Positions 54,501 through 64,000 of a stretch of DNA of 64,000 nucleotides are shown here, in pieces. The notes under the pieces are model-generated. The model was given only the letters and a program-made list of their open reading frames with translations, had not been told where the DNA came from and searched no databases. This DNA is from an uncultured Phycisphaeraceae bacterium (GTDB lineage Bacteria; Planctomycetota; Phycisphaerae; UBA1845). The translations under genes and the position numbers were made by a program. The stretch is taken from positions 762-64,761 of the forward strand of contig CAZYLK010000001.1 of assembly GCA_964648365.1 (NCBI GenBank), read 5' to 3'. Each line of letters opens with the position of its first letter. Within the stretch, counting starts at the first letter, position 1.

Positions 54501-55497
54501 GACAGTCGGGGCGCAGCCGGCGCGGGTGGGCCGCCTCGCCAATGTCCATGTTCATTCCGCCGACGATATGCGGGCCTGGCGCGTCGAGTCCAATGGGAAC
54601 CGGCAGGAGGAGGCCGTCCGCCATGCCGCGGCGGTGCTGGCGCCGCTGCCGCCGGCCGAACCTGTTGCGGCCGCCCATCCGCGCGTCGAAGCCGTGGTGC
54701 GCCGACTGGACGCGCGCTACCCGTCGCTTGCAGTCACGTCCGTCCGTGCCGTCGTCGGCGCCAGCGAGGTCAAGCGTACGGCCGACGCCAGTGGAGATTC
54801 CGAGCGAGCCGCGGGCCTCAGCCCGCGCGGACGCACCGGTCAGACATCGGCGGCGGCGGCGCAGGCGCCCGCAACGAAGCAGACCGCCCAGTCGGCGGGG
54901 CAGGCCCGGCCCGATCTGGAGGCGCCTTCCGCGCGCGCGGTTGCATCGGCTCGCGGGGAAGACGCCCGCCGTCGTGGCATCCTGACGCATCTCGTCTTGC
55001 AGCACGTGGATCTGTCCGCGGCGCGCGATCGCCCCGGCGTGGAGGCCGAAGTCGCCCGACTGGTTGACGCCGGGACGCTAGCGGCGGAGGACGTGGAGCA
55101 CGTCGATGCAGACGGCATCGGCTGGTTTGTGACCACCGACCTGGCCGATCGCCTGCGCAGCGCGGGCGGCGCCTATCGCCGCGAGTTCCCCTACATCGCC
55201 CGCGAGGATCCGGCGTTCTTCGACCCGCAGGTGCGGGCGGAGGATGACGAGGATCAGGTGCTCGTGCGCGGCATTATCGACGGCGTCCTGGAATCGCCCG
55301 ACGGGGTGGCCGTGGTCGACTTCAAGACCGACCGGGTCGAACCGGGTGCTGTCGTGGAACGCGCTTTGCAATATCATGGGCAGATGGCGCTGTACGCGCG
55401 GGCGCTGGAGCGACTCCTGCGCAAACCGGTCGCGGCCGCCCACCTGGTGTTCCTGTCGCCCCGGGTGATTCACAGGATCGATGCGCCCGGTCGCTGA
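51529..55497 (+). CDS. UvrD/PcrA-family helicase with C-terminal PD-(D/E)xK nuclease (AddA-like)
   Basis: Walker A AAAGSGKTSVL, VDEFQDINPLQ, SIHMAKGLEFPVVF and VALTRAREKL motifs. The C-terminal nuclease motif is RGIIDGVL...VVDFKTD. No AddB-like gene is in the window. Confidence 0.85.
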   Translation: MSAIAPTPQQRQAIETAGCEVIVSAAAGSGKTSVLAGRCAYLVSEAPAPWRCDADALLVLTFTEAAAAQMRSRIVDRLRERVRQRPEDARLRRQLSLIDLAEIGTLHAFCLSLVRRYFSTLGVDPDVRVLDADEAALIERDAMDGLFERLYARQAVGVTGASGGGNAGADAGRGVADVLAGRFVELVEVYGLGRDAAIAEAVLRLSRFLDSLPDPEGWLHTHVHAAAANPAGLVDRKLAQLRDELARQLEHLRAQWAAIDGQESRCRLVKDALRAYGVQLNEWAAMAAAPAEGADAASAGACLDRLRGAMAAFEFKKPHGVRRRPGEELPPHVRYAVETFDEVQKGLFSGRLMKAFGRFSTAEWIAGAGAVVPHAAALADLAIEFRAEYLARKRALGAIDFSDLERLAYTLLSADGEGGGQVAEELRARFAHVCVDEFQDINPLQAAIIRAVSRTGDGANLFVVGDVKQSIYRFRLAEPELFLEAWRQGRQTDRGGAIPLQSNFRSRSEVIGFANLLFEQLMRPGAGAVVYDDHARLVAGRADAAAPPPQLVELHLLARRLDAAPGSENADESGEHAVDSPPPDGDDAVRAFDPTDPAEWNPIEREAFLIGRRIGQLMTDGSVTPDGKRLQYRDIAILLRSTKVNAAQVAAMLTSMGIPVHSDAAVPFLSSQEVREMLDALRVLDNPRQDIPLAGVMRTGVLGESFTEDELVEIRAMDRSVAFHQAVHRFGQSGPAGATQRKLSRLLATIDQYRHEAGTRPLADVVWDIYDRGGYLAHVGGLPRGLHRRANLIHLHERARRFGTFRRQGLHYFLRYIELLESRDADLSDSAPSPGAEDAVRIMSIHMAKGLEFPVVFLAGTGTRFNMQDSRGMILFSRRSGIGLRVVDRDKYVHYPGLAHSLVVDEVERDAREEELRVMYVALTRAREKLIVIGTPVCKDIDEWVAAARGTGRPPTLYAVDRAGCMLDWIVPCMASAPVGDVAWPEGASSTTVGAQPARVGRLANVHVHSADDMRAWRVESNGNRQEEAVRHAAAVLAPLPPAEPVAAAHPRVEAVVRRLDARYPSLAVTSVRAVVGASEVKRTADASGDSERAAGLSPRGRTGQTSAAAAQAPATKQTAQSAGQARPDLEAPSARAVASARGEDARRRGILTHLVLQHVDLSAARDRPGVEAEVARLVDAGTLAAEDVEHVDADGIGWFVTTDLADRLRSAGGAYRREFPYIAREDPAFFDPQVRAEDDEDQVLVRGIIDGVLESPDGVAVVDFKTDRVEPGAVVERALQYHGQMALYARALERLLRKPVAAAHLVFLSPRVIHRIDAPGR
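54806..54831. repeat. H4 hairpin inside the AddA-like coding sequence
   Basis: gagccgcgggcctcagcccgcgcgga, translated in frame as SERAAGLSPRGR. Confidence 0.85.
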
Positions 55498-55516
55498 CCG
55501 GGGGATGGAATGCTGT

Positions 55517-58500
55517 ATGCGAGTGCTTGGCGGCTACGACGCGCAACTGGATGCACGGGTGCGGGAACTCGGCCGTGAGATCTTCGAGCGGGCGGCCGAC
55601 GCGACCCCGCGGTTCGGGCAGCGCGCCTGGGCGCTGGAGAAGCTGACCTCCTGGGTGGACAGCGACCCGAAGCTCAAGGCGGCGGCCTTCGAGTTCGTGG
55701 CGACGCTGCCGTCGCTGCGGGATGACCATGACATCGCCCGCCACCTGGCGGAGTTCATGGCACAGCGCGAGGTTGATCTGCCGCTGCCGGCGCGGTGGGC
55801 GCTGGGGCTGGGTTCAGACCACCGGTTGCAAACCGGTGCCACATCGGATCACCGGTTGCAAACCGGTGCCACATCGGATCACCGGTTGCAAACCGGTGCC
55901 ACACCGGATCACCGGTTACAAACCGGTGCCACACCGGATCACCAACTGGAGACCGGTGCCACAGGGGACCACCGGTTGCAAACCGGTGCCACAGGTGACG
56001 GCAATGCGACGTTGCTCTCGTCGCTGATCGGCGTGATGGCCCGTCGCGGGGCGTCCGCGATGGCGGAGCGCTTCATCACCGGGCACGACGAGGCCAGCGT
56101 CACGGCGACCCTGGAGCGATTCCGCTCGCAGGGCATGACGTTCACGCTCGACGTGCTGGGCGAGTCTACGACCAGCGATGCCGTAGCGGAACGATATCTC
56201 AACACCTACCTCGAACTGATCGAGCACCTGTGCCCACGCGCGGCCACGTGGTCGAACGCGCCGACGATTGACCGGACCGATCGCGGACAGCAGCCGCGGG
56301 TCAACATTTCCATCAAGCTGACCGGCCTCGATCCGCACTTCGACCCCGTCGATCCGCAGCGTTCCATTGACGAAGTCTGCGCCCGCATCACGCCGCTCCT
56401 GCGCCGGTCGCGGGAACTCGGCGCGTTCGTCAACGTGGACATGGAGGCCTTCCGCTATCGCGACCTGACGCTCGACCTGTTTGAGCATCTGATGATGCGA
56501 CCGGAATTCCGGGATTGGGAAGATGTCGGCATCGTGGTTCAGGCCTACCTTGCGGACGGCGAGCGTGACCTGGCCCGTCTGCTCGACTGGGGTCGCAATC
56601 GCGGTTCGCGGTTCGCGGTGCGACTCGTCAAGGGCGCTTATTGGGACACAGAGGTCGCGCTGGCGGCGGAGGCGGGTCTGCCTCCGCCGGTGTGGACGCA
56701 GAAGTGGCAGTCCGACGCCTGCTACGAGCGCATGACGCGCGTCATGCTCGCCCATACGGATGTCATTCGACCGTGCTTCGCCAGCCACAACGTCCGCTCG
56801 CTGGCTCACGTGCTGGGCACGGCCGAGCGATACGGACTGACGCCGCGGTCGTATGAAGTCCAGATGCTCTACGGCATGGGCGACCCTCTCAAGGATGCGA
56901 TGGTTCGCATGGGCCAGTGCCTGCGCGTCTACTCGCCCTACGGCGACATGATCCGCGGCATGGCCTACCTGATCCGCCGGCTTATCGAGAACACGTCGAA
57001 CGACTCGTTCCTGAAGCAGGGCTTCACGCATCGTGCGGGCTACGACCGTCTGCTCGCCGATCCCGCGATCGCCGGGCCGGCGAGGAACGGGCGGGGCGGC
57101 AGCGGCAATGGCGCGGATTCAGGTGCGCCCGAGGCATCGACGCCCGGAGTCGCGCAATCCGACTTCGGCCGTCGCGAAACCCGCGACGCCATGACCGCCG
57201 CGCTGAAGCGCCGGGGCGACGTTCCGACGTTCATGCCCTACGTCGCCGGTCGGTTTATCACCGCGACGGCGACGGAGGATGCCGCGGATGCGTCGCGCCC
57301 GGGCGTCGCCATCGCCAGGATCGGTCTGGCCCGGCCGGCGGACGTGGACGATGCCGTCGCCGCGGCCCGAACCGCCGCTGCCGCGTGGTCTGCACGCAGC
57401 GATGCGGAGCGCCGGGAGGCGGTGGCAGCGCTGACGGAACGCATGATCACCCGGCGGATGGAACTGGCGGCGTGGCTGATCCGCGACGCTGGGATGACAT
57501 GGCGTGCGGCGGACATCGAAGTGGCGGCCGCGATCCGTGCCTGTCGCCGGTGGGGGGCGACCCTGCCTGCCGCGACTCGCCCGGGCGGCAGGGTCTGGGC
57601 AGCGTTACTGCCCTGGAACGCGCCGCTGTCGGTGGCTGCGGAAGTGCTGGCCTGCGGGTTGGCCGCCGGACGGGCCGTCATACTCAAGCCGGATCTGCGC
57701 GCCGCTTGCGCCGCCTGCGTGCTGGCGACGCTCGTCGACGAGTTGGAGCTGCCCGCGGGTCTTGCAGCGATTGTTGCCGGGCCTGATCCCGCTACGGCTG
57801 GACGCCTGACGCGGCATACCGGCGTCGACCGCCTGATTCGTATCGGCCCGCCCGATCCCGACCTGGACGCCGCATCCGGCGAGGGGGCCGGGCGTGCCTT
57901 CGGCCGGACGTTTGTGCCCGATTCGGTGGTTGTCGTCGGGCACACGGCCAATCTCGACGCAGCCGTGTGGGGTGCGGTCCAGTCGGCGTACGACTTCGCC
58001 GGGCAGTCGTTCTCCGCCGCCAAGCGGATTATCGTCGATGCGGCGGTCCACGACGCGTTCGTCGAGCGGCTGAAGGAGGCGGTCGAAAGCCTGATGATCG
58101 GGCCGGCCGATGCCCCGCTGACGCTGGTCGGGCCGATGATCGACGAGGCGGCGAGGGAGCGGTTTCGGCGATCCGTCGCAGCCGTGGCCTCGATCTCTCG
58201 GATCGTCGTCGATCGCACCGCTGCCGCTGACGCGGCGTCCGGCTGCGTCGGTCCACTGCTTCTGACGGGGGCGCAGCTCGCGCCCGCGGCGATCGGCCCC
58301 GTGGCCTGCGTCTACAGAGCCGCCAGTTTCGAGCAGGCGTTGCGGATGGCGAACGCACGCCCCGCACCCGCGGCGGCGGTCTACACCCGCACGCCGTCGC
58401 AGCTTCGCGCCGCTCGCATCGCCCTGGCGGAATCGGAGGTTACGATAAACACGCCGGTGGCTGGCGGAGGCTGGGGCGGCCTGGGGCAGTTGGTTCTATC

Positions 58501-58606
58501 GGAGTCCGGCGCCGAATCCGGCATCGTGGCTTCCGCGGCAGGCCCGGTGACGGCCGCAAGCGGGACAGGTCGGGATCGCGCCCCGACGGGCGCAGGCGCG
58601 CATTGA
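55517..58606 (+). CDS. putA: PutA-like fusion: proline dehydrogenase domain + aldehyde-dehydrogenase-like domain (the latter apparently lacking catalytic residues)
   Basis: N-terminal arm KAAAFEFVATLPSL. ProDH barrel motifs VRLVKGAYWD and RVYSPYGD...YLIRRLIENTSNDSFL. ALDH fold markers LLPWNAPL and VILKPD, but GQSFSA stands where GQxCxA is expected. Start alternatives are 55481, 55505 and 55517. Confidence 0.8.
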   Translation: MRVLGGYDAQLDARVRELGREIFERAADATPRFGQRAWALEKLTSWVDSDPKLKAAAFEFVATLPSLRDDHDIARHLAEFMAQREVDLPLPARWALGLGSDHRLQTGATSDHRLQTGATSDHRLQTGATPDHRLQTGATPDHQLETGATGDHRLQTGATGDGNATLLSSLIGVMARRGASAMAERFITGHDEASVTATLERFRSQGMTFTLDVLGESTTSDAVAERYLNTYLELIEHLCPRAATWSNAPTIDRTDRGQQPRVNISIKLTGLDPHFDPVDPQRSIDEVCARITPLLRRSRELGAFVNVDMEAFRYRDLTLDLFEHLMMRPEFRDWEDVGIVVQAYLADGERDLARLLDWGRNRGSRFAVRLVKGAYWDTEVALAAEAGLPPPVWTQKWQSDACYERMTRVMLAHTDVIRPCFASHNVRSLAHVLGTAERYGLTPRSYEVQMLYGMGDPLKDAMVRMGQCLRVYSPYGDMIRGMAYLIRRLIENTSNDSFLKQGFTHRAGYDRLLADPAIAGPARNGRGGSGNGADSGAPEASTPGVAQSDFGRRETRDAMTAALKRRGDVPTFMPYVAGRFITATATEDAADASRPGVAIARIGLARPADVDDAVAAARTAAAAWSARSDAERREAVAALTERMITRRMELAAWLIRDAGMTWRAADIEVAAAIRACRRWGATLPAATRPGGRVWAALLPWNAPLSVAAEVLACGLAAGRAVILKPDLRAACAACVLATLVDELELPAGLAAIVAGPDPATAGRLTRHTGVDRLIRIGPPDPDLDAASGEGAGRAFGRTFVPDSVVVVGHTANLDAAVWGAVQSAYDFAGQSFSAAKRIIVDAAVHDAFVERLKEAVESLMIGPADAPLTLVGPMIDEAARERFRRSVAAVASISRIVVDRTAAADAASGCVGPLLLTGAQLAPAAIGPVACVYRAASFEQALRMANARPAPAAAVYTRTPSQLRAARIALAESEVTINTPVAGGGWGGLGQLVLSESGAESGIVASAAGPVTAASGTGRDRAPTGAGAH
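55820..55993. repeat. Six tandem 30-bp copies of the H1 hairpin inside putA, in frame
   Basis: caccggttgcaaaccggtgccaca + 6 nt, with copies starting at 55820, 55850, 55880, 55910, 55940 (degenerate) and 55970. They are translated as DHRLQTGAT[SPG] x6. Confidence 0.95.
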
Positions 58607-61124: not shown

Positions 61125-61772
61125 ATGGCGAACGGGTTTCGGATCACTATTACGGCCGGGGCGGGGCTGGTCGGTTCGACCGTTCCGCTGAAGCCGGACG
61201 ATTCCACGACGATCGGCACGCGATCTACCTGCTCACTGGTCACGCCGTCGGACCGGGTGGCCCCCGTCCATTGTCGCATCAGGCGTGAGGGCGCCGACTG
61301 GATGCTGCGCTGCGAGGTCGATCCGCGCACCGGCAAGCCGTGCAGCGTGATCGTCAACGACGGCCGGTGCTCCGAGACGCCGCTGCGGCAGGGCGATCGC
61401 ATCGAGATCGGCTGCTACCGGCTCCGTTTCGATGAACCCGACGCCCCTCCCGATCCGTTCGAGGCGCTGGCGCCTCCCGTTACGCTGTCGGTGGTTCCGC
61501 CGCCCCAGGCGCCGACGCCGCGCGTCACCGCGCTCGCCGGGGAGCGCGTCTTGATCGGCAGCAGCCAGACGGCCCTCTGGCGCCTGCCGGACCGAACGGT
61601 TTCACGTCACCACTGCCGCGTCGAGTTTGACGGCAAAGCCTGGCAGGTCCGCGACCTCCAGAGCCGTAACGGAACCTACGTCGACGGCTACCGCGTGGCG
61701 TCCGGTGCGCTCGAGCACGGATCGCGGGTACTAGTCGGGCGGTATCGGATCGACGTGGCGATCGAGGCGTAA
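61125..61772 (+). CDS. Protein with two FHA domains
   Basis: There are two copies of the FHA pattern: TIGTRSTCSLV...VHCRI...VNDGR, and LIGSSQTALWRLPDRTVSRHHCRVEFDGKAWQVRDLQSRNGTYVDG. Confidence 0.8.
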   Translation: MANGFRITITAGAGLVGSTVPLKPDDSTTIGTRSTCSLVTPSDRVAPVHCRIRREGADWMLRCEVDPRTGKPCSVIVNDGRCSETPLRQGDRIEIGCYRLRFDEPDAPPDPFEALAPPVTLSVVPPPQAPTPRVTALAGERVLIGSSQTALWRLPDRTVSRHHCRVEFDGKAWQVRDLQSRNGTYVDGYRVASGALEHGSRVLVGRYRIDVAIEA

Positions 61773-61797: not shown

Positions 61798-62262
61798 TCA
61801 GCGAGATGTTGCGGGCGGTCTGCGCCGCCGACTACAGTGCTTCGCGATAAGCCGCCGGTGCGAAGCATTCTGGTACACGCTCCCTTTCGGAGACAGTATC
61901 CGGGGGTTCGTGAAGTCGGCGTGGAGGTCGGTGTCGTTGGAACACAACAGGCGGACCCCCGACACGCGGGCAACTGCGAGAATGTGCTCGTCGTCGGAGC
62001 GGCAGAGTCCTTCCCGCGTCAGATGCATGGCCTCGCCATCGACGGCGCCGTCATCGAGCTGTCGGCAACGGCCGGCCCGGTCCAACTCGAGAATGATCGG
62101 CTGGATGCTCCGCAGACGCTCGTATTCGAAGCGCATTCGCGTCCCGCCGATCACGGCGACAGCCCGGCCGCGCTTCAGCGCGTCGTAAACAGCGCGAAAT
62201 GGACCGGTGGCGGGCGCTGCGAAGACGTCCGGAGCGACGTTCGTATCAACGACCAGACACAT
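61798..62262 (-). CDS. PIN-like domain protein (putative nuclease), translationally coupled to upstream ATPase gene
   Basis: MCLVVDTNV (first acidic motif), SDDEHILAVA and LLCSNDTDL (PIN-like acidic residues). Its ATG shares one base with the ATPase stop (TGATG at 62260-62264). Confidence 0.65.
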   Translation of the reverse strand: MCLVVDTNVAPDVFAAPATGPFRAVYDALKRGRAVAVIGGTRMRFEYERLRSIQPIILELDRAGRCRQLDDGAVDGEAMHLTREGLCRSDDEHILAVARVSGVRLLCSNDTDLHADFTNPRILSPKGSVYQNASHRRLIAKHCSRRRRPPATSR

Positions 62263-63557
62263 CAGCCGCGGGTCCGGTGAAGGAGGCTTGCCGTTTCATC
62301 GAGGAAAAACTGGCGATAGGCCGGAGGCGCATCCACCACGTTCCCCAACGGATCAAGTGTGATGGGGTAGACGGTGGTTTCGGACCGCGGCCGGTAAAAG
62401 AAGAGTATCATGACCTCGTCCGCGCCGATGGTTCCCGCCGCCACCTCCCGCCGCACCCGATCCACCAGATGATCGCTGTGCGTCTCGATCACCGCCATCC
62501 GATTTTTCGCGCCTGCGACAAGACGGGCGAAGAACGTCCCCAACGCCGCCTGTGCGCGGGGATGGAGATGAACCTCCGGTTGCTGCATAAGAAGGGTTGC
62601 GTCTTCGTCATGCAGCACGCTCTGCACGACGATGGGCAGGGCCTGACTCACGCCGTAGCCGACGTCGGTCAGGTTGACAGCGGCACCGCCGACCCGTACG
62701 CGCAACTGGAACGGGTCGGATGCCTGCTTGCCGAGCCGCTTGACATCTACCTGCCTAAAAAGCCCCGACTCGCCCCCGAACGCTCGAAGCGCGCTCAGCA
62801 CGCGCTGGCCGGCGGGGGATGATTCCTCGCGGTCCAGCAGGCGGGCCAGCAACGTCGGGACATGGTCGCCCTCCGGGCTGTATTCTTCACTGAATTCATC
62901 GTATGTCCGGCGTGGCTTGGAACGGATAGGCGCGGTGGAGCGGGCCTGCGCGCCTGGCGCCAGCATTTGGGCGATCATCCGGTCCGCCAGACGCAGGCTC
63001 TCTGTTGTCCAATGACTGCCGTTGTCCTTTGTCCACCGTTGCACGATGTCGTACACGAGCAGCATCAACGGAATTCCGCTTCGCAATCGCTCGGCATCGA
63101 AGGGCGCGTCCAGTTCGGCCGCCGGCGCCGCAAGGCCGTGGGGCGTCAGCGATATCCGGATGGATGCGTCGCCGATCGACAGATCGATCGTGCCTGACGC
63201 GCCTGTTCCTCGAAAACCTCGAAGCAACGTGTTGCCGGAGTCGCTGCCATAGCGCGCCAGAACCTCGTGGTCGGTTTGCCCGGCGGCCTCTGCGATCGCG
63301 TATCCGAGGCTGAAGTGGTCGGCGTGCCGGTTCCCGCTGCCAAGCGAGGTTGCAATGGTGTCGTACGTGCCCAGATTGTAGGGTGGATCATTGAACCCGG
63401 GGCTGAGCGGGAAACCGATGCCGTCCATGACGCCGTTCAGCGCGGCCAGCATCGTGGTCTTGCCGGAACTGTTCTCGCCGACCAGAAAGGTCAGCGGGCG
63501 GAGCGGAATCCGATGCATCCCCGCGAAACTGCGGACGTTTTCGAGTATTAGTTCCAT
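62262..63557 (-). CDS. ABC/AAA15-type ATPase with DUF3696-like C-terminus
   Basis: MELILENVRSFAG...FLVGENSSGKTT (Walker A), LLMQQPEVHLHP (Walker B) and IETHSDHLVDRVRREV (H-loop plus DUF3696-like tail; family name from recollection). The ATG at 63557 was chosen over the GTG at 63575. Confidence 0.75.
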   Translation of the reverse strand: MELILENVRSFAGMHRIPLRPLTFLVGENSSGKTTMLAALNGVMDGIGFPLSPGFNDPPYNLGTYDTIATSLGSGNRHADHFSLGYAIAEAAGQTDHEVLARYGSDSGNTLLRGFRGTGASGTIDLSIGDASIRISLTPHGLAAPAAELDAPFDAERLRSGIPLMLLVYDIVQRWTKDNGSHWTTESLRLADRMIAQMLAPGAQARSTAPIRSKPRRTYDEFSEEYSPEGDHVPTLLARLLDREESSPAGQRVLSALRAFGGESGLFRQVDVKRLGKQASDPFQLRVRVGGAAVNLTDVGYGVSQALPIVVQSVLHDEDATLLMQQPEVHLHPRAQAALGTFFARLVAGAKNRMAVIETHSDHLVDRVRREVAAGTIGADEVMILFFYRPRSETTVYPITLDPLGNVVDAPPAYRQFFLDETASLLHRTRG

Positions 63558-63649: not shown

Positions 63650-63691
63650 CCGAAACCAAAGCAGGCCGGCACCGGATGTCCGGCGCCGGCC
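63650..63691 (-). terminator. Intrinsic terminator-like hairpin downstream of the right-edge gene
   Basis: The minus sense reads GGCCGGCGCCGG-ACAT-CCGGTGCCGGCC followed by TGCTTTGGTTTCG. It lies about 70 nt after the stop at 63759-63761. Confidence 0.6.
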
Positions 63692-63758
63692 TGAACGTGC
63701 TCTGACCGTCGTCACTGGGCGGTCGGCCCTCGCGAACTCGACCTCCGATACCGACCAA

Positions 63759-64000
63759 TCAGCAATCCGACCGCTTGCCCTTGATCTTGCAGGTGCCGTT
63801 GCCCTGCGGGCAGCCGATGGTCGTCTTAATCTTCTTGTCGCAGTCCTTGACGTCTTCGCAGCGTGCTTCGCTCCGGTAGGCGCCGCCCTTCGGCGGGCAC
63901 AGGTCGCAGCCGCCCTTGGCCTTGCTCTTCTTGATGGTATAGGTGCAGCGTGAGCCGCCCAGCGTTACGTAGGCAAGACCGTCGTGGGCGCCGAGGCCGC
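63759..64000 (-). CDS. Partial CDS (C-terminus only): third protein carrying the 8-Cys C-terminal domain
   Basis: Own minus-strand translation gives ...GLGAHDGLAYVTLGGSRCTYTIKKSKAKGGCDLCPPKGGAYRSEARCEDVKDCDKKIKTTIGCPQGNGTCKIKGKRSDC, with the stop at 63761-63759. It is not in the ORF track because its start lies beyond the window. Confidence 0.75.
   Translation of the reverse strand, partial: GLGAHDGLAYVTLGGSRCTYTIKKSKAKGGCDLCPPKGGAYRSEARCEDVKDCDKKIKTTIGCPQGNGTCKIKGKRSDC

Follow-up and report, generated by a model that had tools for sequence, protein, structure and literature searches.

A translationally coupled ABC-type ATPase and PIN-fold protein in a planctomycete genome: a probable phage-defence gene pair related to HEC-03

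Introduction

What is the role of a gene pair in which an ABC-type ATPase is followed, with one shared base, by a small PIN-like protein, and is the pair of a kind already known? Such a pair lies on the minus strand of the window, the whole stretch of 64,000 nucleotides analysed here, from an uncultured Phycisphaeraceae bacterium. A first-pass annotation proposed that it is a two-gene defence or abortive-infection module.

Dyads of an OLD-type ABC ATPase and a PIN protein have already been reported (PMC12839542). In HEC-03 (Hma-embedded candidate 03), an ABC ATPase that ends in a DUF3696 tail is paired with a VapC-like PIN protein. HEC-03 of Pseudomonas cichorii defends E. coli against phage, both genes are needed, and the system is toxic when induced (bioRxiv 10.1101/2024.01.29.577857). 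In Menshen (Millman et al. 2022; Li et al. 2025, PMC12065111), the DUF3696 tails of the ATPase NsnB are predicted to clamp the PIN-like domain with which NsnC begins, and sporadic loss of domains has been reported (PMC12065111).

Results

Layout of the gene pair and its flanks

61125-61772: FHA gene, convergent to the pair (Pfam FHA 2.1e-27).
61798..62262, minus strand: stand-alone PIN gene, putative RNase effector; 154 aa, ATG at 62262-62260, stop at 61800-61798.
62260..62264, minus strand: TGATG stop/start overlap indicating translational coupling; one base common to both genes, read directly.
62262..63557, minus strand: ABC-type ATPase gene of the NsnB/HEC-03 clade; 431 aa, ATG at 63557, stop TGA at 62264-62262.
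63662..63693, minus strand: terminator-like GC hairpin of the upstream gene; 14-bp stem with 12 GC pairs.

On re-reading, the statements of the first-pass annotation about the sequence of the pair were all correct, including the single base shared by stop and start. The two flanking genes that it described, the convergent FHA gene and an upstream eight-cysteine gene, were both found. The latter is a gene fragment with an 8-Cys tail whose stop lies at about 63760, and the hairpin is positioned between this stop and the ATPase start. To judge from the sequence, the hairpin marks the 5′ boundary of the two-gene unit. A promoter scan, whose consensus is uninformative for a high-GC host, found no sigma-70-like promoter upstream of the ATPase gene. 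The GC content of the pair is about 0.64, against 0.67-0.72 in the flanks. No NCBI protein names are recorded for the window proteins.

The two genes are conserved as a unit

Patterns derived from a 12-sequence subset of the PIN alignment gave 7 matches among ~185,000 species genomes. The ATPase gene lies directly upstream of the PIN gene in 7 of the 7 genome loci with upstream DNA, from at least five phyla (Planctomycetota, Bacillota, Terriglobia, Acidimicrobiia, Ca. Palauibacter). Five more paired loci were reached via ATPase or PIN homologues, and all 20 metagenome loci having upstream DNA carry both genes. Whether the pair recurs elsewhere had been left as a point to check; it is kept as a unit in every locus with upstream sequence. 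A 1-nt overlap (TGATG, TAATG or TAGTG) is present at 23 of 39 homologous junctions, and at the remaining two-gene junctions the genes are no more than 15 nt apart or overlap by no more than 17 nt. One further entry, contig L049, carries the ATPase and the PIN protein fused as a single frame. Pairwise identities of the two proteins correlate (r 0.79, Mantel 0/2000), and both genes are under clear purifying selection. The pair is a real, widely conserved two-gene cassette.

The first protein has an ABC head with a degenerate Walker B motif

63453..63479, minus strand: Walker A (P-loop) GENSSGKTT, residues 27-35.
62958..63197, minus strand: hypervariable insert, residues 121-200; candidate trigger-recognition surface.
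62559..62597, minus strand: degenerate Walker B TLLMQQPEVHLHP, residues 321-333; Q325 and Q326 in place of both acids.
62268..62411, minus strand: C-terminal tail, probable DUF3696 equivalent, residues ~383-430; two strands and helix 412-430 in the AF2 model.

The assignment of the first protein to the ABC-type ATPases was upheld: the Walker A, a signature-type motif, an H-loop and the ABC head fold are all found, and Pfam matches are AAA_15 (4.9e-17) and AAA_21 (3.1e-13). Walker A residues G27, E28, N29, S30, G32 and K33 are invariant across 26 homologues. In the homologue alignment GENSSGKT, DVGYGVSQ and ETHSD are invariant; the IETHSDHLVDRVRR motif is also present in the ATPase. In a Foldseek search with the AF2 model (pLDDT 83), the top matches, at E 1e-10 to 1e-12, were Rad50/SMC heads together with the PtuA ATPases from Septu and retron I-A.

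Rad50 and SMC heads being among the best structural matches, the pair could be imagined as a housekeeping complex for nucleic-acid processing or repair, like Rad50-Mre11 or a RecF-type ATPase with a nuclease, whose substrate would be RNA or DNA of the cell itself. The other neighbours in the window, which are metabolic genes (ETF and a PutA-like gene), together with the FHA protein, would suit such a role. The AF2 model, however, has neither coiled coil nor zinc hook, its insert being short and hypervariable, and the nearest sequence relatives are defence ATPases. Moreover, the family is sporadic, with only the 7 genome matches given above for the patterns used; at the cellular loci examined, where neighbours vary, no housekeeping gene is kept in synteny with the pair, and relatives occur in phages and within an Hma system. 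A housekeeping role is thus very improbable.

The Walker B segment departs from the ABC pattern. The first-pass annotation had read MQQPEVHLHP as a Walker B; its position and shape hold, but the acidic residues do not, both being Gln. The Walker B acid and catalytic Glu of the ABC type (hhhhDE / hhhhEE) are absent from the window ATPase. In a HMMER alignment, Q325/Q326 match the EE of Thermus OLD 6p74 (VIIEEPEMYLHP), and strand 321-325 of the AF2 model terminates at Q325. The QQ is invariant in ATPase alignment A3 and is found in all PIN-family-linked loci except L006. Because both Walker B acids are Gln, the ATPase may be a switch that binds ATP but hydrolyses little or none of it.

Residues 121-200 are the least conserved, with top-residue frequencies of 0.23-0.34 compared to 0.6-0.9 in the rest of the ATPase. 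This insert may serve as a sensor of a phage trigger.

Pfam DUF3696 (PF12476) gave no match at E<=1 in the window ATPase and none in the homologues listed, whereas it is detected in the HEC-03 ATPase at residues 399-440 (3.5e-9). Tail residues ~383-427 nevertheless align position for position with that DUF3696 region (hhalign; HEC-03 residues ~399-442). The DUF3696-like tail proposed earlier therefore stands as an alignment to the HEC-03 segment, with a predicted C-terminal helix 412-430, but not as a Pfam match. By analogy with AF3 models of another system, Menshen NsnB-NsnC (PMC12065111), the tail is a candidate docking site for the PIN protein.

The second protein is a PIN protein with an intact acidic tetrad

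62236..62253, minus strand: PIN motif VVDTNV; first catalytic Asp, D6, at 62245-62247.
62125..62127, minus strand: codon of E46, second catalytic acid; invariant, in helix 41-48 after strand 2.
61969..61998, minus strand: PIN motif SDDEHILAVA; third catalytic acid, D91, at 61990-61992.
61924..61941, minus strand: PIN motif SNDTDL ([ST]-x-D); fourth catalytic acid, D110, at 61933-61935.

The three PIN motifs picked out in the first-pass annotation are all present in the 154-aa protein, and the protein models as a PIN fold, the other point it had left to be checked. The AF2 model (pLDDT 90.6) has strands and helices in the same order as VapC. Its best Foldseek matches in the PDB are VapC toxins (6a7v, 7by2, 3h87, 5ecw; prob 0.99-1.0, TM 0.45-0.57). 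The top nine matches are all PIN/VapC proteins (prob 0.95-1.0, TM 0.43-0.57, E 4e-3 to 2e-2), and the top PDB matches include VapC11, VapC and PAE2754. The window protein alone falls below the Pfam gathering cut-offs (PIN_3, 15.8 bits against 27, E 0.025; PIN, 15.3 bits against 23.6, E 0.031). Across the family, at E<=0.1, PIN is matched in 17 of 32 members (best 6e-5) and PIN_3 in 11 of 32 (best 7.4e-7). Despite the weak Pfam scores of the window protein, the PIN assignment is secure because of these family-level matches and the fold. A profile search of PDB sequences returned nothing at E<=10, and no PADLOC model matched the window PIN at E<=1.

D6, E46, D91, D110 and D116 are invariant among 32 PIN homologues, as are S89 and H93; S108 is nearly invariant. 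The D-E-D-D positions D6, E46, D91 and D110 fit the predicted PIN secondary structure, D110 coming after strand 105-107. The aligned counterparts of D6 are D7 in Shigella VapC and D/E6 in the HEC-03 PIN family; E46 pairs with E52 of the latter. The hhalign alignment to Shigella VapC was limited to the first motif and mapped only D6 directly, so that the mapping of E46, D91 and D110 rests on secondary-structure position and on the HEC-03 PIN alignment.

The PIN family comprises 1978 clusters at E<=1e-3 and 432 at <=1e-30 (clusters at 50% identity), with lengths of ~140-170 aa in almost all of the best 150 of the 1978 representatives. The PIN gene is frequently uncalled in annotations.

The pair compared with HEC-03

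The HEC-03 reference proteins were WP_025259138.1 and WP_025259137.1 of Pseudomonas cichorii, with the full ATPase gene taken from locus L019. Profile comparison of the window ATPase family with the HEC-03 ATPase (hhalign) gave a probability of 99.5% and E 2.3e-23 over 218 columns, DUF3696 tail included, and BLASTP gave 29% identity over 174 aa (E 2e-18). Both ATPases (~430-460 aa) have a GxNSSGK P-loop, a DVG[YF]GVSQ signature, an xQPE[VI]HLHP Walker B and an E[ST]HS H-loop, the Walker B pair being EQ in HEC-03 and QQ in the window ATPase; both probably end in a tail of DUF3696 type. The gene order is the same, ATPase and then a PIN protein of ~155 aa in overlapping frames; the HEC-03 genes (322707-324092 and 324079-324552) overlap by 14 nt, compared to 1 nt in the window.

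Among PADLOC models, the window ATPase matches Menshen NsnB better (PDLC03878, 4.1e-38, residues 3-413 to model positions 5-330 of 345) than PDC-M55A (2.6e-31) or the HEC-03 ATPase model HEC-03B (PDLC04148, 3.4e-27), on which a genuine HEC-03 ATPase scores 5.4e-231. The genuine HEC-03 ATPase has the same secondary PADLOC matches as the window ATPase.

The two PIN proteins belong to different sequence families. The HEC-03 PIN model HEC-03A (PDLC04147) did not match the window PIN at E<=1, while a genuine HEC-03 PIN gives 9.4e-86. Compared directly, the two are marginally alike (41% over 29 aa by BLASTP; E 0.004 and prob 8.5% between profiles), the best-conserved common stretch being SDDEHILAVA. 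Both have 6a7v, which Payne et al. used for HEC-03, as best structural match. As PIN sequence similarity is marginal, homology of the effector to that of HEC-03 rests on fold and position. Hosts also differ: the window type is found mainly in Planctomycetota, Acidobacteriota and other environmental phyla, and HEC-03 in Proteobacteria. HEC-03 is Hma-embedded, and one relative of the window pair (L007) is likewise within an Hma system. The ATPase homology and the common layout indicate that the window pair is a divergent relative of HEC-03.

The pair compared with Menshen, PARIS, Septu and Gabija

NsnB and the window ATPase both have a GxG-type signature and lack the canonical catalytic Glu. In NsnC the PIN is inactive and is followed in the same chain by a C-terminal nuclease; the window partner, in contrast, is a stand-alone PIN with D-E-D-D. 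Menshen ATPase and PIN partners shuffle, whereas those of the window family co-vary.

The third Menshen gene, NsnA (ParB-DUF262), was found at none of the 17 cellular and phage loci with flanks checked. DUF262 is not listed among the neighbours of L008, L010, L012, L017 and L018, and NsnA is not among the 25 PADLOC families listed (of 69 matched) for 84 neighbour ORFs. In the window, upstream of the ATPase there is the terminator-like hairpin and beyond it the Cys-rich fragment, with no NsnA before the window ends at 64000. A degenerate Menshen was rejected, as its partner genes are absent at the loci checked.

The match to NsnB, the best in PADLOC, together with an NsnC that opens with a PIN-like domain binding the NsnB tail and the reported loss of domains (PMC12065111), would agree with a decayed Menshen: a non-functional remnant of NsnB and an NsnC truncated of its C-terminal nuclease, with NsnA lost. 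Such a remnant is extremely improbable. Besides the missing NsnA, the PIN family is large and uniform in length among the best 150 listed, the four catalytic acids are invariant here while Menshen PIN-like domains lack them, and both genes are under purifying selection with pairwise identities that covary.

PARIS, Septu and Gabija, with which the first-pass annotation had drawn its parallel, share with the pair the logic of an OLD/SMC-like ABC ATPase regulating a paired nuclease effector. That much of the parallel holds, but they are not the closest relatives, which are HEC-03 and Menshen NsnB. The ATPase has partial HMM matches to AriA (9.8e-19) and GajA (~1e-8); those to AriA models cover only its C-terminal ~90-115 residues. 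PtuA is represented by structural matches 8eea and 9n69. Effectors of these systems are Toprim or HNH as against PIN here, and the likeness is limited to ABC core motifs. The Toprim partner of PARIS, AriB (DUF4435), is absent, its place being taken by the PIN protein. Membership in PARIS, Septu or Gabija was rejected because the partner genes are absent.

Genomic context of relatives, and the question of an addiction cassette

Housekeeping genes, and not defence islands, surround the pair in the window and at most cellular loci. At L007 the pair lies between HmaB (5.9e-114) and HmaC (7.8e-71), with AbiJ and PDC-S32 nearby, and at L010 it adjoins a type II restriction-modification pair. On four IMG/VR phage contigs (L021-L024) it is found beside portal, terminase, tail-fibre, endolysin and repressor genes. 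The prophage- and Hma-located pairs are more distant relatives of the window pair.

VapC tRNA/rRNA endonucleases resemble the window effector in fold and catalytic residues, with VapC sequence similarity below Pfam thresholds. In VapBC the toxin is paired with VapB; here there is no VapB-type antitoxin and the partner is the ATPase. A plain VapBC module was rejected as no VapB is present. A broader reading is that of a selfish toxin-antitoxin or addiction cassette, in which a VapC-like toxin and a neutralising ATPase owe their persistence to post-segregational killing or to growth arrest triggered by stress, and have no anti-phage role. The VapC-like fold, the tight translational coupling, the patchy occurrence across unrelated phyla, the insertion among housekeeping genes that differ each time, the GC content slightly below that of the flanks and the toxicity of HEC-03 on induction are all consistent with it. 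However, the large protein comes first and the toxin second, and a 431-aa ATPase with a hypervariable insert is unlike VapB. The homologous HEC-03 architecture gives phage defence with both genes required, and relatives lie within prophages and inside an Hma system. We consider an addiction cassette unlikely. The addiction and defence readings are not exclusive, since abortive-infection systems are often toxin-antitoxin-like.

Discussion

As a divergent relative of the validated HEC-03, the pair is a probable phage-defence module of known architecture and not of a new type. The defence module suggested in the first-pass annotation thus gains support from the ATPase homology to HEC-03, the Hma-embedded relative and the relatives in prophages. 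We favour the view that the two genes form a conflict module of HEC-03 type, complete in itself, probably with the ABC ATPase as sensor and regulator and the PIN protein as RNase effector.

In such a module, the PIN protein would be translated from the same mRNA as the ATPase. The ATPase would oligomerise via its ABC head and, by means of its DUF3696-like C-terminal tail, hold the PIN protein in an inactive state. A phage-derived trigger, sensed by insert 121-200, would shift the nucleotide-dependent conformation of the ATPase, and the PIN nuclease would be released or unmasked. The freed PIN may cut cellular and/or phage RNA, and infection would be stopped (abortive infection). Since the QQ Walker B may mean that ATP is not hydrolysed, any ATP-driven step in this scheme is uncertain.

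Given that Gln is fixed at both Walker B acid positions in loci of at least five phyla and in phages, it is conceivable, with a small chance of being right, that the clade is a naturally 'EQ-trapped' ABC ATPase, a hydrolysis-independent latch or nucleotide-pool sensor for an active PIN RNase. The pair would, on the same tentative terms, represent the simple active-PIN state ancestral to the Menshen arrangement of an inactive-PIN adaptor and a separate nuclease. An EQ-trapped ATPase would bind ATP and close, yet hardly hydrolyse it.

The window pair does not alter what is known about the construction of such systems. What is added to the class of ABC ATPase and PIN anti-phage systems is a large unannotated family (~2000 PIN clusters at 50% identity), with members in Planctomycetota, Acidobacteriota, Actinomycetota, Gemmatimonadota, Bacillota and temperate phages. 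It is probably overlooked by present-day defence annotation, because the PIN partner is not covered by any model of PADLOC-DB 2.0. The family offers a minimal comparison point for how DUF3696-tailed ATPases, such as those of HEC-03 and Menshen NsnB, control PIN-fold partners, and its QQ Walker B bears on whether such ATPases need hydrolysis at all.

Organisation of the locus

Both genes of the pair are encoded on the minus strand and have one base in common, within TGATG, in agreement with the first-pass annotation. The flanks are also as it described, a convergent FHA gene and an upstream eight-cysteine gene, and all the motifs it quoted are present in the sequence. Features of the region are:

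61125-61772, convergent to the pair: double-FHA gene
61798-62262, minus: PIN open reading frame, ATG at 62262-62260, stop at 61800-61798, 154 aa
62262-63557, minus: ATPase open reading frame, ATG at 63557 to TGA at 62264-62262, 431 aa
63693-63662, minus: 14-bp GC hairpin, between the upstream fragment and the pair
63662-64000, minus: upstream gene fragment with 8-Cys tail, and the hairpin after it

NCBI annotates the ATPase as a 418-aa protein with its start at M14 (window 63519-63557). The 431-aa form, which begins at 63557, is supported by the Logan call and by conservation of the N-terminus, where R9 is invariant. A GTG six codons upstream is a less likely start, because the homologues begin at MEIILEH. 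The pair has a GC content of about 0.64, lower than the 0.67-0.72 of the surrounding DNA. The tail of the upstream fragment is Lys-rich and has 8 cysteines within about 65 residues; the hairpin is strong and its T-tract weak. Elsewhere in the window, a PutA-like open reading frame (55481-58606, plus strand, 1041 aa) carries near its N-terminus about six tandem 10-residue units, SDHRLQTGAT and variants; such a low-complexity insertion is unusual for a metabolic enzyme.

The ATPase and PIN genes form a conserved unit

In the PIN-based search, the ATPase gene preceded the PIN gene and ended within a few bases of its start in 7/7 genome loci (three from Planctomycetota and the others from Bacillota, Terriglobia, Acidimicrobiia and Ca. 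Palauibacter). It likewise adjoined PIN in all 20 metagenome loci containing upstream DNA. When the search was based on the ATPase, a PIN gene was found downstream in 3/3 homologues from large contigs, even where the gene caller had overlooked it. The commonest junction is a 1-nt overlap (23/39 entries), and the remaining two-gene junctions have gaps of at most 15 nt or overlaps of at most 17 nt. Pairwise identities of the two proteins are correlated (r 0.79; Mantel 0/2000). ATPase and PIN thus constitute a conserved unit.

On one metagenome contig (L049:3-968, WNFJ01740851.1) the ATPase C-terminus and PIN lie in a single open reading frame; the C-terminal helix of the ATPase is absent and '...DAPPQSDTRL' is joined directly to 'MCLIIDAN...'. 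Either the fusion is natural or it arose from an error in assembly or sequencing. The PIN downstream of the ATPase is uncalled, or a spurious opposite-strand frame is called, in several large assemblies (L008:5281-5706, L010:5311-5733, L012:5230-5722). In locus L012 it is split by a frameshift, and the same ATPase in L013 is followed by an intact PIN. Protein databases therefore list too few members of the family.

The second protein has a PIN fold

The window protein alone matches Pfam weakly (PIN_3, E 0.025; PIN, E 0.031). Among 32 homologues, 17 match PIN and 11 match PIN_3, the best at 7e-7, and D6, E46, S89, D91, H93, D110 and D116 are invariant. AF2 models the protein with confidence (pLDDT 90.6), and VapC or PIN proteins account for all nine top PDB matches, VapC11 (6a7v) being the first. 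Family conservation, family-level Pfam matches and the predicted fold together settle the assignment. The acids are placed like PIN catalytic residues (end of strand 1, helix past strand 2, helix N-cap, and S-x-D after strand 4), as mapped from secondary structure and alignment to the PIN family of HEC-03 (Hma-embedded candidate 03); direct sequence alignment to VapC recovered the first motif only.

When 1.84 billion cluster representatives were scanned in full with HMMER, 1978 relatives emerged, 432 of them at E<=1e-30; the best 150 of the 1978 are almost all 140-170 aa long. The family is a large one of stand-alone proteins, nearly all without Pfam assignment. In the window protein (61801-62262), C2, C107, H135 and C143 are near-invariant, besides the invariant H93; these residues may form a structural metal site, atypical for VapC. 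The HEC-03 PIN family has invariant cysteines of its own (C23, C27, C150).

The ATPase is related to defence ATPases

The ATPase matches AAA_15 (4.9e-17) and AAA_21 (3.1e-13). Its top defence-model match is NsnB of the Menshen system (NsnA-NsnB-NsnC), at 4.1e-38 over nearly the full length, followed by PDC-M55A (2.6e-31) and a model labelled HEC-03B (3.4e-27). AriA, GajA and Old models scored far lower, on core motifs only. AF2 predicts an ABC head (pLDDT 83); among solved structures the model is closest to the heads of Rad50 and SMC and to PtuA ATPases from Septu and retron I-A.

Across 26 homologues at 45-56% identity, GENSSGK[ST], DVGYGVSQ, LLxQQPEVHLHP and ETHSD are invariant. The two glutamines of the QQ motif stand at the positions of the Walker B acid and catalytic Glu, which are EE in Thermus OLD (HMMER alignment); the predicted strand 321-325 terminates at Q325. 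Every ATPase linked to this PIN family has QQ except one, which has EQ. HEC-03 also differs here, with EQ, and NsnB is reported to have EN (PMC12065111). Residues 121-200 are hypervariable and the remainder is strongly conserved. The segment PIRSKPRRTYDEFSEEYSPEGDH (residues ~205-235, window 62853-62945) is among the most conserved of the family, despite a pLDDT below 50 in the monomer model; an interface loop, ordered only in the complex, is a possible explanation.

Comparison with Menshen and HEC-03

In Menshen, the sensor role is proposed for NsnA, the ABC ATPase NsnB carries a DUF3696 helix, and NsnC joins an inactive PIN-like domain to a nuclease; from AF3 models, the PIN-like domain is predicted to be clamped by the tails of an NsnB dimer (Li et al., PMC12065111). 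Pairs of OLD-type ABC ATPases and PIN endoRNases have also been noted (PMC12839542). The window pair is not Menshen, because NsnA and a two-domain NsnC are absent. A decayed Menshen system, for all the NsnB-like ATPase, is less well supported; the catalytic tetrad of the window PIN family is intact, in contrast to the inactive Menshen PIN.

HEC-03, embedded in Hma systems, comprises an ABC ATPase and a VapC-like PIN protein. In E. coli it reduced plaquing of several phages, required both genes and was toxic upon induction (Payne et al., bioRxiv 10.1101/2024.01.29.577857). The Pseudomonas cichorii system encodes a 461-aa 'DUF3696 domain-containing protein' and then a 157-aa protein, with a 14-nt overlap (same reference, supplement). 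PADLOC labels the two genes in reverse of Payne et al. The HEC-03 ATPase aligns to the window family (probability 99.5%, E 2.3e-23), and its Pfam DUF3696 segment is part of the alignment. The 'DUF3696-like tail' of the first-pass annotation is therefore supported by homology, although Pfam detects no DUF3696 in the window ATPase. Similarity between the PIN families is only marginal: BLASTP gave 41% over 29 aa, and profile-profile comparison E 0.004 over 114 columns, with catalytic positions in register. PADLOC would not call the window pair HEC-03, since the partner model does not match. Of two genomes with genuine HEC-03 pairs, one (L020:370-6146, Pseudomonas, CP142185.1) has AlpA-like and DUF927 primase-like genes alongside, which places the pair on a satellite or integrative element; in the other (L019) it lies amid ordinary chromosomal genes.

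Genomic context of relatives

In the window and at most cellular loci the pair is surrounded by unrelated housekeeping genes, different in each genome, as fits a mobile cassette of two genes. The checked flanks of 17 cellular and phage loci contained no ParB-DUF262 gene near the pair. Three kinds of context among relatives point to defence. The Ca. Palauibacter pair has HmaB (5.9e-114) on one side and HmaC (7.8e-71) on the other, with AbiJ and PDC-S32 alongside; this locus (L007:312-11496, NZ_CBDBNY010000004.1) is a compact island with PDC-S32-like, HmaB, ATPase-PIN pair, HmaC and AbiJ-like genes in that order. One Planctomycete locus adjoins a type II restriction-modification pair. Phage contigs of IMG/VR carry more distant pairs, with ATPases ~29% identical and PIN profile E of 1e-20 to 1e-24, beside portal, terminase, tail-fibre and repressor genes. 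On a fourth phage contig the ATPase is next to an endolysin gene, and the contig ends at the ATPase, before any PIN position. A housekeeping repair or RNA-processing complex and a purely selfish toxin-antitoxin cassette are both less well supported readings of the pair.

Interpretation

The folds, motifs and strict pairing of the two genes, the homology of the ATPase to validated or characterised defence ATPases, and the defence or prophage contexts of relatives support the candidate defence module proposed in the first-pass annotation. The locus is best read as a HEC-03-like two-gene module, with the ATPase as predicted sensor or regulator and the PIN protein as a predicted active RNase effector. 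The two proteins would form a complex through the ATPase tail, sensing might take place through the hypervariable insert, RNA would be the PIN target, and the pair would have an anti-phage phenotype. The pair is a divergent, unannotated member of an already known architecture. What distinguishes it is the QQ Walker B, a separate and large PIN family, and a PIN catalytic tetrad that, in contrast to Menshen, is intact.
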